Below the pieces are notes generated by a model. It was not told the origin of the DNA. It did no database searches and worked only from the letters and a program-made list of their open reading frames with translations. DNA of 27,340 nucleotides from a virus, in the IMG/VR virus record IMGVR_UViG_3300045988_034716, positions 1 to 27,340 of that record; one strand, 5' to 3'. How positions within the stretch are numbered: the stretch's first letter is position 1; each line of letters starts with the position of its first letter. Both the position numbers and the translations under genes were made by a program. Shown in pieces: positions 4,723-27,340 of the stretch.

Positions 4723-5433
4723 CTAGAACGGGCAGTCGGCCATGTCTACGACAGGCGACTCGTTCACATACGCCTCGAACTTCGATGCTCGGAACAGCGT
4801 CTCCGGTCTTAGGTACGAACGCATCCTCGGGTCTTTCGACCACTGCGCGACCTTGCAGTCTATGACTGCGATGCAGTCGCTCACCGAGTACCCGTCCCTC
4901 AGCCTCGCCGCAATCGGCTTGCGCGTCGAGTCCTTCCTCGGGTTGAACCTCTTCCCCGTCAGCTCGTTGAGGTGCGCCGTTACCTCGTCCACGCCCTCCT
5001 GGATGCCGTCTTGGGGGGCTTTAGGGGGTTCTATATGGCTAGTCATCTGGTAGTCATCTGGTATAGGTTCGCCATGTGGGGCAATTTGATTTGCCCTCAC
5101 GGGCAAATGGATGTTCCCGTTACGGCAAATGCGCACCCCCTCGTCCGTGAGCGTGTACCACTTCGTCCTGTCGTATGCCGCGTCGTTGTACACACCGGCC
5201 TCGACGAGTCCCGAGTCCTCTAGCCTCTTGAGCGCCGAGCGTATCTGCTTCTCCGTCATGTACGGGAACTGCTCGGAGAAAGCCTTCACGCTGTTGTACG
5301 TCCAGAACCTCCCGTCGCGCTCGTTCTGGCTGTTCGTCGCGTTCTTCTCGACCCAGTACTCTATGTTCTTGAACAGCACCGCCGCGTTGACGCCCACCAG
5401 CTTCGCGACTTCCGAGTCGAATGCGTTAATCAT
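4723..5433 (-). CDS. Phage replisome organizer (DnaD-like N-terminal domain plus conserved phage C-terminal domain). The start is re-assigned to ATG 5431-5433
   Basis: N-terminal MINAFDSEVAKLVGVNAAVLFKNIEYW... C-terminal LNELTGKRFNPRKDSTRKPIAARLRDGYSVSDCIAVIDCKVAQWSKDPRMRSYLRPETLFRASKFEAYVNE, the conserved phage replication-protein C-terminus. RBS GGAGGAGAC precedes ATG. The longer track ORF start at 5526 would read through an upstream terminator hairpin. Confidence 0.85.
   Translation of the reverse strand: MINAFDSEVAKLVGVNAAVLFKNIEYWVEKNATNSQNERDGRFWTYNSVKAFSEQFPYMTEKQIRSALKRLEDSGLVEAGVYNDAAYDRTKWYTLTDEGVRICRNGNIHLPVRANQIAPHGEPIPDDYQMTSHIEPPKAPQDGIQEGVDEVTAHLNELTGKRFNPRKDSTRKPIAARLRDGYSVSDCIAVIDCKVAQWSKDPRMRSYLRPETLFRASKFEAYVNESPVVDMADCPF
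5036..5132 (+). repeat. Ori-like iteron element, copy A, inside the replisome-organizer linker
   Basis: AGTCATCTGGT AGTCATCTGGT ATAGGT...GATTTGCC...GGGCAAATG...CCCGT..GGCAAATG. About 80% identical to the element at 21128..21226. It encodes the inter-domain linker (..IPDDYQMTSHI..). Confidence 0.6.
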
Positions 5434-6413: not shown

Positions 6414-6814
6414 TCGTCTACCTCCACTATCTCGACTGTCATGTACTCCGCTGTCCTCGTCCTCGGGTTCTTTCTGACCACAAGGCAAACGACCTGCGTG
6501 TCATCGTGCCACGCGACACCGTTAAGTGCGTCGAGTACGCTCTTCGCAACGTTGTCTGCGTCCGGCTTGTGCGTGTCAGGCTCGCTCTGGACTCGCTTCG
6601 GCGTGCTCTTCGGAAGCTCTCTGTACGTCTGAACCGTAACCATGAGCGGCCCGTCGTGCGTCTCTCCGCACTGCCTTCGGTACTCGTCAGCTATCAGCCT
6701 CTCGTACCTCTTGCCCTCCGGAGGCTGGTACGCCTGGGCGTGCCCCGCCACGACTCTGAACCTCGGGCGGGGCTTGCCGTGAACCTTGCCGACGACGATC
6801 AACCTACTCCTCAT
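6410..6814 (-). CDS. rusA: RusA Holliday-junction resolvase
   Basis: A 134-aa ORF with GKPRPRF and KPDADNVAKSVLDALNGVAWHDD motifs. Confidence 0.85.
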   Translation of the reverse strand: MRSRLIVVGKVHGKPRPRFRVVAGHAQAYQPPEGKRYERLIADEYRRQCGETHDGPLMVTVQTYRELPKSTPKRVQSEPDTHKPDADNVAKSVLDALNGVAWHDDTQVVCLVVRKNPRTRTAEYMTVEIVEVDE

Positions 6815-7214
6815 CGTCCTGCTCGGACTTCATGAGGCTGTCGATGGCCCTCTTCTTCTCGGACTCGTACACCGAACGAAGCTCTGCTTTGCACAGAAAC
6901 ACGAATTGCTCGTAGCTCATGAAGCTCGGCACCTTCTCAATCCTGCGCTTGAGCCAGTCCTCGAAACTCTCGGCAACGACTGCCCCGCCCTTGCGCTCTA
7001 CCCGCACGTCCTTCCAGTAATCGAGCGAGTCTGCGGCGAGCTTCTCGCGGCCAACCTGTAGGATTCGTGCTTTGATGCCCTCGAACGGGTCTTTCTCGGC
7101 TCTCACTGTGGCCGATTCGACCATGCATGCCCTCATCTTCGCGTTCTCGGCCTTAAGACGTGATATGCGGTCGTAAGCCTCAAGCACGCCCATCACCATG
7201 TCGTTGCGTTCCAT
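6804..7214 (-). CDS. Hypothetical protein, 137 aa, first gene of the P1 unit. Start re-assigned to MERNDMV
   Basis: The track ORF start at 7298 lies inside promoter P1. ATG 7212-7214 is preceded by the conserved leader GAAAGGCAGGAcagg that also precedes the first gene downstream of P2 and P3. Confidence 0.55.
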   Translation of the reverse strand: MERNDMVMGVLEAYDRISRLKAENAKMRACMVESATVRAEKDPFEGIKARILQVGREKLAADSLDYWKDVRVERKGGAVVAESFEDWLKRRIEKVPSFMSYEQFVFLCKAELRSVYESEKKRAIDSLMKSEQDDEE

Positions 7215-7278
7215 CCTGTCCTGCCTTTCCGCCCTTCCGGGCTTCTCGTTTCCGGGGATTCCGTTTCCCCTTGACTTA

Positions 7279-7307
7279 ATCATAGCACAATCGTTCATCG
7301 TTGTGAA
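7279..7307 (-). promoter_or_regulatory. Promoter P1: TTCACA-17-TGcTATGAT (minus strand), conserved module copy 1
   Basis: On the minus strand: TTCACAacgatgaacgattgtgcTATGAT. Near-identical copies occur at 8979..9007 and 25194..25222. Confidence 0.65.
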
Positions 7308-7316
7308 TAGTAATTA

Positions 7317-7345
7317 CGAGAAAACGGCGGGCTTGCAACCCGCCT
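7317..7345 (-). terminator. Rho-independent terminator: GGCGGG ttgcaag CCCGCC then GTTTTCTCG
   Basis: A hairpin followed by a U-tract on the minus strand, directly after the stop of the 7352..7603 gene and directly before P1. Confidence 0.6.
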
Positions 7346-7351
7346 TACGCG

Positions 7352-8978: not shown

Positions 8979-9007
8979 ATCATAGCATAAGCGTTCATCT
9001 TTGTGAA
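8979..9007 (-). promoter_or_regulatory. Promoter P2: TTCACA-17-TGcTATGAT, conserved module copy 2
   Basis: On the minus strand: TTCACAaagatgaacgcttatgcTATGAT. Confidence 0.65.
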
Positions 9008-9014
9008 TAGTGTA

Positions 9015-9050
9015 CGCAAAAATATGGGGGGGCGCTTTCACACCCCCCCA
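9015..9050 (-). terminator. Rho-independent terminator: G7 / C7 stem then ATATTTTTG
   Basis: On the minus strand: gggggggtgtgaaagcgccccccc followed by atatttttgcg. It is 7 nt downstream of the endolysin stop. Confidence 0.6.
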
Positions 9051-21098: not shown

Positions 21099-21127
21099 GT
21101 CACCACCCTTTTCCCTTTAGCTTTTCT

Positions 21128-21226
21128 ATCTGGATAGTCATCTGGTAGTCATCTGGTATAGGTCGGCCATTGTTGTCAAATCGATTTGCCATCTAGGGCA
21201 AATGAGATTTACCCGTCGGGCAATGG
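21128..21226 (+). repeat. Ori-like iteron element, copy B, intergenic
   Basis: ATCTGG at AGTCATCTGGT AGTCATCTGGT ATAGGT..GCCAT..GATTTGCCatctagGGCAAATG..CCCGTcGGGCAATGG. It is a direct-orientation copy of 5036..5132. Confidence 0.6.
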
Positions 21227-24228: not shown

Positions 24229-24506
24229 CACTGCGCCTCCTTGTACTCGTACTCGAACTCCTCGGTGTCCCCGTTCGAGTAGACCGCCTTTCGTAGCAGG
24301 CTCCCAATCTTGTAGTCATCCTCGAACGTGACCCTGATTCGCTCGCCGTTCACGTACTTCCTGAACACGATTCCAGACGCCTTCTTGCGCATCTGGTTCG
24401 GCGTGTAGAAGCTCCTTACCGGCTTCTCGCCCTTGCCGTTGTGCCAGCAGACGACCCTCTTGCACGCGTCCAGGCCGTCGAGGTCATCGCATCCGTATCC
24501 CATCAT
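24228..24506 (-). CDS. Hypothetical protein, 92 aa. Start at MMGYGCDDLDGLDACKRVVCWHNG
   Basis: ATGATG overlaps the TGA of the upstream 48-codon gene. The track's 144-aa version has an Arg-rich artefactual N-terminus. Confidence 0.5.
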   Translation of the reverse strand: MMGYGCDDLDGLDACKRVVCWHNGKGEKPVRSFYTPNQMRKKASGIVFRKYVNGERIRVTFEDDYKIGSLLRKAVYSNGDTEEFEYEYKEAQ

Positions 24507-24649
24507 CTGTCTTCCTTCCTCACGAACCCGCTTGCCTTCACCTTGCTGCCTTCGAGCACCTGACGCTCTGGCTCCTCCACCTCTTCGAGCGTCCCGTAGC
24601 AGCGGCATATGCACGTCCCGTCCTCGTGCCTCGCGTACCCGTAGCACAT
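24503..24649 (-). CDS. Small Cys-rich protein, 48 aa (MCYGYARHEDGTCICRCYGT...). Not in the ORF track because it is under 60 aa
   Basis: Strong RBS GAGGAGGAGcg precedes ATG. Its stop overlaps the next start. It is paralogous at the N-terminus to the two downstream genes. Confidence 0.5.
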   Translation of the reverse strand: MCYGYARHEDGTCICRCYGTLEEVEEPERQVLEGSKVKASGFVRKEDR

Positions 24650-24658
24650 CGCTCCTCC

Positions 24659-24865
24659 TCACATCATCGTATCGTCGTTGACGGTTGCAGCTTCCCTAAT
24701 CGCGTACGGTTCGTTGCCAGCACAGGCTACAGCCCTGCACAGCTTCCACTGCGTTACACCGCCGTTCATCGCGGTTGACATTGCCTGCATCAGCGCTGCC
24801 GTGTCGTTCACTGCCTGTATCGTCTTTTCGAACTTTCCTTCGACGTAGAACCCGTATCCGCTCAT
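24659..24865 (-). CDS. Hypothetical protein, 68 aa. Start at MSGYGFYVEGK
   Basis: ATG preceded by GGAAAGGCAGGAAGc, a fourth copy of the conserved SD-region sequence. Confidence 0.45.
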   Translation of the reverse strand: MSGYGFYVEGKFEKTIQAVNDTAALMQAMSTAMNGGVTQWKLCRAVACAGNEPYAIREAATVNDDTMM

Positions 24866-24916: not shown

Positions 24917-25151
24917 CCTATGCAACGTATGCCACGTACCTTTTGTTCTTGGTGTCCCTCCTGAAGCAAACGGCCGCCTCTCCGCAGTCCGTATCTACCA
25001 CGAGATGCCTTTCGTTCATGACTGACACCTTCATGCCCCTTTCCACCATCTGCCGGTAGAGGACTTCCACAAGCTCGGCGACCCTTGCTCCGCTGCTGGT
25101 GTTCTCTGCGAACTCCTTTGCGAACTCGATTGCGTCGTTCTTGGTTTACAT
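24917..25151 (-). pseudogene. First ORF of the P3 unit. ATG at the conserved position, then an in-frame TAA as codon 2, then 76 open codons (TKNDAIEFAKEF...KRYVAYVA)
   Basis: The leader GAAAGGCAGGAC-ATG aligns the second ATG (25149-25151) with the start codons downstream of P1 and P2. Codon 2 is TAA where those copies have GAA/GAG. The downstream frame is open to TAG at 24917. Confidence 0.4.
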
Positions 25152-25193
25152 CATGTCCTGCCTTTCTTGTGGTTGTTGTTATTTGTTGATGTA

Positions 25194-25222
25194 ATCATAG
25201 CATATGTGTTCACCTGTGTGAA
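25194..25222 (-). promoter_or_regulatory. Promoter P3: TTCACA-17-TGcTATGAT, conserved module copy 3
   Basis: On the minus strand: TTCACAcaggtgaacacatatgcTATGAT. Confidence 0.65.
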
Positions 25223-25231
25223 TGGTTTACT

Positions 25232-25262
25232 CAAGAAAAAGCGGGGATTTTTTCTCCCCGCC
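25232..25262 (-). terminator. Rho-independent terminator: GCGGGGA gaaaaaa TCCCCGC then TTTTTCTTG
   Basis: On the minus strand, downstream of the 25278..25496 gene and immediately upstream of P3. Confidence 0.65.
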
Positions 25263-27285: not shown

Positions 27286-27340
27286 AGATAGTGAATCTCC
27301 CTGATTGGCGCTGACGCACCGAAGCAGATTGGTGTTCCCT
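27286..27340. repeat. Terminal direct repeat; exact copy of 1..55
   Basis: 55/55 identity with the window start. Confidence 0.9.

Follow-up and report, generated by a model that had tools for sequence, protein, structure and literature searches.

At the head of the third promoter unit (P3) of the viral stretch analysed here (the window, 27,340 nt), the start codon of the first gene is followed directly by a stop codon, and it has to be asked whether this ATG-TAA pair is a genuine nonsense allele, an error of sequencing or assembly, or a deliberate start-stop element that limits translation of the operon. These three options had been raised in an earlier note made from the letters of the window alone. 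Our analysis indicates that the gene, designated g77 (77–78 aa), is very probably present as a genuine, heritable ochre null, that is, as an ordinary knockout of a dispensable accessory gene.

The phage genome and the P3 locus

The window is a circular assembly with an exact 55-nt terminal direct repeat (bases 1–55 are identical to 27286–27340), so that the unique genome comprises ~27,285 bp; the junction falls within the portal gene. The GC content lies at 56–63%, and a greedy tiling of minus-strand ORFs yielded 41 genes, with this strand alone accounting for the genome. The head genes encode TerL, portal, minor capsid protein 2, scaffold and the major head protein, the last of which is 46% identical to its phage D6E counterpart. 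The window also encodes a tape measure protein, a GH25 lysin with cell-wall/choline-binding repeats, and ERF, SSB, PD-(D/E)XK nuclease, DnaD-like, DnaC-like and RusA proteins; by its predicted content, the gene set is typically siphovirus-like. The best explanation of these features is a complete circular genome of ~27.3 kb, probably belonging to a siphovirus-like phage that infects a Gram-positive bacterium of the human gut. That the otherwise intact genome is complete and was recovered in several assemblies points to a viable phage.

A DNA search against deposited phages, near and distant, recovered no relative of the locus, the sole matches being short tape-measure stretches, and scans of IMG/VR, JGI metagenomes and GTDB genomes using a protein pattern and a conserved 21-mer did not find the g77 locus. 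No prophage copy was found in the genome collection searched, and no host was obtained.

Stop codon usage across the 41 tiled minus-strand ORFs was TAG 20, TGA 14 and TAA 7, a ranking that seemed unusual to us when taken by itself. The genome further contains a 100-nt repeat in two copies that are 77% identical (window 5029–5128 and 21124–21223), one of which falls within the DnaD-like (Phg_2220_C) gene; the second is flanked by g153 and the Minor_capsid_2 gene. The repeat comprises a tandem TAGTCATCTGG (two units) and the inverted motifs GGGCAAAT/ATTTGCCC, and it may represent an origin or a regulator-binding array.

Read along the minus strand, the P3 locus presents, in this order, a terminator, a sigma-70-type promoter, the ribosome-binding site (RBS) GAAAGGCAGGA, two successive ATG codons (25154 and 25151) and TAA (25148–25146), as detailed in Table 1. 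The sequence at the start reads ...AGAAAGGCAGGAC ATG ATG TAA ACC AAG AAC GAC..., and the translation of the locus is MM*TKNDAIEFAKEF...RYVAYVA*. The terminator hairpin is kept in relatives, is a member of repeat family D1, and closes the upstream unit of terminase, portal, minor capsid protein 2 and g72. The AAAGGCAGGAC core of the Shine-Dalgarno (SD) region is unchanged in 10 of 10 aligned loci, and RNA folding of the leader and start region gave no notable structure (z = -1.8).

Table 1. Sequence features of the P3 locus, in window coordinates.
Feature	Position	Strand	Remarks
Intrinsic-terminator-like hairpin GGCGGGGAG..CCCCGC with T-run	25240..25262	-	8-pair stem with 6 GC pairs; T-tail
P3 promoter, TTCACA-17 nt-TATGAT	25194..25222	-	10/12 matches; TG at -15/-14 (extended -10)
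Shine-Dalgarno region GAAAGGCAGGA	25156..25166	-	Common to the P1 and P2 leaders and to the RBS of the next gene
Upstream in-frame ATG	25152..25154	-	Only in the 'MM' sub-lineage; ACG in other relatives
Ancestral g77 start ATG	25149..25151	-	Spaced N4 from the RBS, like the P1 and P2 starts
TAA ochre codon	25146..25148	-	G>T at 25148 of GAA (Glu2); same in L008
Rest of the disabled g77 frame	24918..25145	-	75 sense codons, TAG at 24920-24918; 90% identical to intact homologs
GTG, first in-frame start-type codon after TAA	25068..25070	-	Source-annotated 50-aa ORF (P0005); no good RBS
ATG of MKVSV, preceded by GGTGGAAAGGGGC	25032..25034	-	38-aa ORF of other pipelines (P0006)
g68, next gene, with its own RBS GGAAAGGCAGGAAGC-ATG	24659..24865	-	52 nt past the g77 stop

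The terminator-promoter-leader cassette occurs in three copies on the minus strand (7279–7347, 8979–9047 and 25194–25262). P1 and P2 have the spacing AGGCAGGA-N4-ATG-GAA/GAG, and in P3 it is the second ATG that stands at N4 spacing, followed by TAA. The cassette alignment thereby confirmed the description in the earlier note of a conserved leader that is followed by ATG GAA or ATG GAG behind P1 and P2 and by ATG TAA behind P3, and its placing of the P3 start at 25149–25151 agrees with both the minus-strand read and the translation. The open frame that it described is likewise present, but the 76 codons that it counted include the final stop and the sense codons number 75. Two of its distances need correction: the lower bound of 24917 lies one base too far, the frame ending at 24918, and the next RBS, which it put 51 nt away, begins ~36 nt past the TAG, with the ATG at 24865 being the element found at 52 nt.

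The three cassettes share the promoter consensus TTCACA-N17-TGnTATGAT and the leader RBS GAAAGGCAGGA-N4-ATG-GA(A/G). Their -35 hexamer sits within a short palindrome, TTCAC-N4/5-(G/A)TGAA, which could double as an operator. Promoters of this type head the recombination/replication unit as well as a unit inside the head-morphogenesis module. At P1, the longest-ORF start of ORF 6804–7298 (position 7298) lies upstream of the -10 element; the RBS-aligned ATG, placed by eye at ~7205, opens a product that reads MERNDMVM... and is similar to the M-E-T-R-N-D beginning of g77. The first codons of the gene may therefore belong to the duplicated cassette.

Homologs of g77 and the origin of the TAA codon

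An open frame of 75 codons alone is unremarkable in DNA of 58–60% GC, and it is the homologs that validate it. As a query against a search space of 5.8 billion protein clusters, the 75-aa frame matched four full-length homolog clusters and the truncated 50-aa call of the source annotation. Once the clusters had been listed, ~25 distinct homologs of 77/78 aa were counted in five protein clusters, with an identity of 76–91%. Homolog N-termini read M(M)ET(R/K)NDAIEFAK, with M(M)E(T/A/I)(R/K)ND as the form that holds across homologs. In the related gut-phage contigs these genes are found at the corresponding position, preceded by the same terminator and promoter, within a shared neighbourhood that runs minor capsid protein 2, g72, terminator/promoter, g77, g68, g48, g92, a DarA_C-domain gene, scaffold and capsid.

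At the DNA level, all intact homologous loci carry ATG GAA at the aligned codon, where the window has ATG TAA. Since every intact homolog has GAA at this codon, the change in the window is, by comparison with these relatives, a single G>T nonsense substitution of GAA. A G-to-T change from GAA was what the earlier note had guessed, and the check that it proposed, a comparison with homologous phages, has now been run, with GAA found at the codon and the downstream frame conserved in ~25 proteins.

Pairwise dN/dS among intact g77 alleles was 0.25–0.55, with dS up to 0.45, and intact g77 is thus kept under moderate purifying selection. The copy in the window carries the private changes W33R, Y49H and T60A and one synonymous change, the count being four private non-synonymous changes versus one synonymous. 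Relaxed constraint after the knockout was considered and dropped: intact genes are equally skewed (11:1 in the portal C-terminus and 11:2 in g68), and the comparison is underpowered. The signs of decay in the g77 of the window are weak, and the age of the lesion is therefore not set by them. A mutational signature was also considered, given that all four of the four nonsense changes recorded in this gene cluster are G:C>T:A, yet the private spectrum of the window is broad; the idea was rejected because stops commonly arise from GAA, TCA, GGA and TGC through G>T or C>A. In one related contig (L007, 688–1035), g77 had been called from upstream through the terminator and promoter, with no stop between; the resulting 115-aa product (P0004) is an annotation artefact.

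Pfam and PHROGs returned no significant family for g77, g72, g68, g48 or g92, and a tblastn search of g77 against deposited phages gave no match. The AlphaFold model (pLDDT 85) predicts an alpha-alpha-beta4 fold, in which helices 5–17 and 25–38 are packed on a four-stranded sheet (42–77). An exhaustive HMMER search of 1.84 billion representative proteins recovered one credible distant relative, P0027 (78 aa, 40% identical), whose gene is surrounded by ThyX, RNase H and AAA genes in a 47-kb phage. This is a different genomic module, and the family therefore reads as a mobile accessory gene and not as a head-assembly component. In BFVD, one convincing structural twin without known function was found (Siphoviridae sp. 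ctUi914, TM 0.76/0.88). An 882-aa protein made of ~10 tandem repeats of ~70 aa (P0026, 30% identical) was set aside as a probably spurious or low-complexity match, and weak KA1/AMPK-like alpha+beta similarities in the PDB were rejected as uninformative (E of at least 0.02, TM about 0.5). The DarA_C domain in the neighbouring gene scored 39.8 bits against a cut-off of 27, and from this neighbour a role of g77 in host interaction or counter-defence would be a reasonable guess.

Reality of the allele and its consequences

If the true base were G, g77 would be intact in the real phage and the TAA would reflect an error of sequencing or assembly. The difference amounts to a single base, and G>T is a known class of oxidative-damage artefact in Illumina libraries. 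However, the contig L008 (ENA, human gut, ERR321649, k127_128939; 27,410 bp), which was assembled separately from the window and stems from a different archive, carries the identical ATGATGTAA at the TAA site and the same start region, ATGATGTAAACC. The two sequences show 1 mismatch in 14,384 nt, at window 5074; this sole SNP falls in the first copy of the 100-nt repeat. They also differ in their terminal overlaps (55 nt in the window; 127 nt in L008, as taken from the k127 in its name) and in their break points, the L008 contig ending at the equivalent of window 20651 and the window breaking inside the portal gene. As the same base appears with a differing overlap and break point, an assembler artefact is therefore excluded. 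The 38-aa product (P0006, MKVSV...) is on record on four contigs of 20–50 kb from three archives (NCBI, Logan and ENA), and gene callers emit this call only when the upstream frame is interrupted. Consensus errors are, moreover, rare at assembled depth, and disabling alleles at other codons were each found in two samples (L009/L010; L015/L016). The window and L008 may share an individual or a library, in which case a systematic read artefact is formally possible but unlikely. An error of either kind, one of the options of the earlier note, is thus very improbable, and the TAA allele appears to be heritable and reproducible beyond one assembly.

A real TAA could still be decoded, whether by reassignment, a suppressor tRNA or programmed readthrough, and yield the full-length protein. 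The downstream g77 frame is still intact, and recoded stop codons (TAG, TGA) are known in some gut phages. Against this, TAA ends 7 of the 41 genes of the window, including scaffold and portal, with the next gene directly after, and reassignment is therefore excluded. The genome contains no tRNA gene, no other in-frame TAA was seen in the genes compared with relatives, and UAA is the least leaky stop codon. We consider decoding of the TAA extremely improbable, and the remark of the earlier note that the allele might be suppressor-dependent found no support. Other routes of rescue were equally missing from the sequence: there is no g77 paralog in the genome, and no ATG, GTG or TTG occurs in any frame for 76 nt past the TAA. 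The first in-frame start candidates are GTG 25070 (78 nt downstream of the TAA, with a weak SD), ATG 25049 and ATG 25034. Judged by the AlphaFold model, little or nothing of the helical layer would remain in a product of 50 or 38 aa, and one starting at MKVSV would have neither helix. On the model and on the lack of a rescue route, the TAA allele is presumably null and makes no full-length protein.

The same elements could be seen as a translational gate of the P3 operon, in which ATG-TAA was selected and reinitiation at MKVSV gives a short functional protein. A strong RBS is kept directly before the pair (GAAAGGCAGGA-C-ATG-ATG-TAA), the SD-like GGTGGAAAGGGG precedes the internal ATG 25034, which is a possible reinitiation site, and start-stops are documented in E. 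coli genes and eukaryotic 5' UTRs. While the juxtaposed ATG-TAA does stand behind an RBS, it is not conserved among relatives, being found in only one of ~30 alleles (the window/L008 lineage), whereas the intact others encode Glu. Nor is the main ORF left intact, the TAA lying in frame at codon 2 of g77, and not in a leader or out of frame, so that the product is removed. The lesions of the relatives, which affect codon 43, the start codon or the reading frame, would not make a start-stop; the downstream genes have their own RBSs; and the 38-aa product would, according to the model, be beta-sheet only. A deliberate start-stop with reinitiation at MKVSV, as the earlier note had envisaged, would thus be limited to one lineage and destroy the main frame in frame, and we consider it very unlikely.

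As an ordinary knockout, the locus would work as follows. The strong RBS would continue to recruit ribosomes, which would synthesise fMet or fMet-Met and stop at UAA-A, leaving no full-length g77 protein and hence a null allele. The phage would tolerate this loss if g77 is, as we infer, a dispensable accessory gene, and g68, g48, g92, the DarA_C-domain gene, scaffold and major capsid would each be initiated from their own RBS. The genes downstream of g77 do each have their own SD sequence; g68 starts behind GGAAAGGCAGGAAGC-ATG, so translational coupling to g77 is not required. The 280 nt left untranslated are G-rich (C/G = 0.62, with no interval in which C exceeds G), and the stretch is therefore a poor Rho-utilisation substrate and not rut-like. 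Polarity on the downstream genes would not be expected.

Recurrent loss and comparison with known systems

Further g77 lesions were found by fetching the contigs of the fragments in the cluster of the truncated call. In addition to GAA>TAA at codon 2 in two separately built assemblies (the window and L008), the relatives carry TCA>TAA at codon 43 in two samples, with one complete 27,496-bp genome (L009/L010); a start codon change, ATG>AGG, plus an in-frame 9-nt duplication in two samples (L015/L016); and, in one sample (L017), the loss of 1 nt near codon 50 together with a 14-nt deletion that takes away the stop. By these alleles, g77 has evidently been broken independently at least four times among relatives. 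The outcome common to the lesion lineages is loss of the protein, not creation of an ATG-stop unit. The genuine nonsense allele or pseudogene proposed as one option in the earlier note is supported here, as L008 repeats the allele and three other lineages inactivate g77.

The adjacent g72 (72 aa, 219 nt) is represented by 48 member sequences in five clusters, and all 22 of the 22 listed are full length. Recurrent independent inactivation of a non-essential gene is thus seen in g77, with four lesions versus none in g72. In the 17 loci compared, the genes for minor capsid protein 2, scaffold and MCP as well as g135 and g153 showed no lesion; the TerL rows of L004 and L009 were flagged by the script and looked like replaced/non-homologous or poorly aligned regions. 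The small gene g48 (48 aa, Cys/Tyr-rich, window 24503–24649) is intact in the window, and two independent nonsense alleles of it were found in relatives, GGA>TGA at codon 4 (L006) and TGC>TGA at codon 13 (L015/L016). Set against the intact controls, the g77 and g48 lesions therefore indicate that loss-of-function alleles concentrate in a few small accessory genes at the operon head, in a survey of truncated alleles that is partly ascertained by the splitting of broken genes by gene callers. A separate change was noted in L009 (5850–6500, corresponding to window 24506–23857), where a 1-nt insertion near the end of g92 leads to a fusion with the DarA_C gene (216 aa).

The recurrence could reflect adaptive loss, in which g77, and perhaps g48, was knocked out repeatedly since its loss is advantageous in some hosts, the TAA then being an escape mutation and not neutral decay. 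The g77 product might, for example, be sensed as the trigger of abortive infection or of another kind of defence, or impose a cost. The four knockouts are independent, mostly single-lesion and located at tips, while the intact members show an omega of 0.25–0.55; apart from the disabling change, neither L009 nor L015 has a private g77 substitution (L015 also carrying its 9-nt duplication). The equally small neighbour g72 is without knockouts, and the DarA_C-domain gene in the cluster suggests a counter-defence or accessory neighbourhood. A precedent is given by laboratory escaper phages, in which mutation typically affects the gene that the defence system senses (bioRxiv 10.1101/2022.08.27.505566). 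The same pattern is, however, expected from neutral or mildly deleterious nulls at mutation-selection balance. The numbers are small, at 4 of ~30 alleles versus 0 of 22–48 (one-sided exact probability ~0.02–0.1, calculated by hand), ascertainment is uneven, and no host, defence system or function is known for g77. On this balance adaptive loss seems unlikely. It is quite unlikely, too, that g77, and to a smaller extent g48, are contingency-type genes repeatedly lost by single point mutations under host-specific selection, with the TAA as a natural gut escape mutant. Here, the alpha-alpha-beta4 protein would be sensed by a host abortive-infection system, for instance, and the kept RBS and start-stop would maintain ribosome loading on the first cistron with the protein removed.

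With the allele read as an ordinary knockout, the appropriate label for the locus is a disrupted 77-aa gene and not a regulatory start-stop, and the 50-aa GTG ORF of the source annotation and the 38-aa ATG ORF of other pipelines would be artefacts of the interruption. Both g77 and g48 would stand out as accessory genes that are dispensable and frequently lost in a gut-phage group not described before. If their recurrent loss is selected, they become candidate determinants of phage-host conflict, and null-allele frequencies across metagenomes could test this pair of genes without a prior functional hypothesis. The kind of event is itself well known, and the recurrent loss is its only mildly interesting aspect.

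Among known systems, the E. coli start-stops comprise 14 cases inside genes, out of frame, that mildly attenuate the host ORF; in yecJ, inactivation of the start-stop start codon raised expression of the host-ORF reporter by ~16% (bioRxiv 10.1101/520783). The g77 locus resembles these bacterial intragenic start-stops, described by Meydan et al. with Ribo-RET (bioRxiv 10.1101/520783), in that ribosomes would start and stop there with no elongation, or with a single step if they began at the upstream AUG. Whereas the E. coli elements are out of frame and leave the host ORF intact, in g77 the stop follows the native start codon in frame and would abolish the product, and unlike in selected start-stop elements, the ATG-TAA arrangement is not kept in relatives. 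Start-stops have also been described in eukaryotic 5' UTRs (PMC13338717). The likeness to g77 lies in a minimal AUG-stop upstream of coding genes on the same mRNA (PMC13338717; bioRxiv 10.1101/2021.07.26.453809). The eukaryotic elements act on the scanning 40S subunit, whereas bacterial downstream genes initiate independently via their own SD, and the g77 ATG-TAA stems from mutation of a gene start and does not belong to a leader.

With the defence-escape mutants of Stokar-Avihail et al. (bioRxiv 10.1101/2022.08.27.505566), the g77 alleles share recurrent inactivating mutations in a non-essential gene with the rest of the genome intact. Those mutants arose under laboratory selection against a defence system that was known, whereas the parallel with g77 is hypothetical.

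The g77 allele is like the natural nonsense alleles and young pseudogenes of phage accessory genes, with a one-nucleotide sense-to-stop change at a conserved codon and the rest of the frame intact. As with such accessory-gene alleles, the gene concerned is small, narrowly distributed and without known function, and other lesions of it occur in relatives. The sole unusual detail, as compared with ordinary nonsense alleles, is that the stop comes right after the start, mimicking a start-stop.
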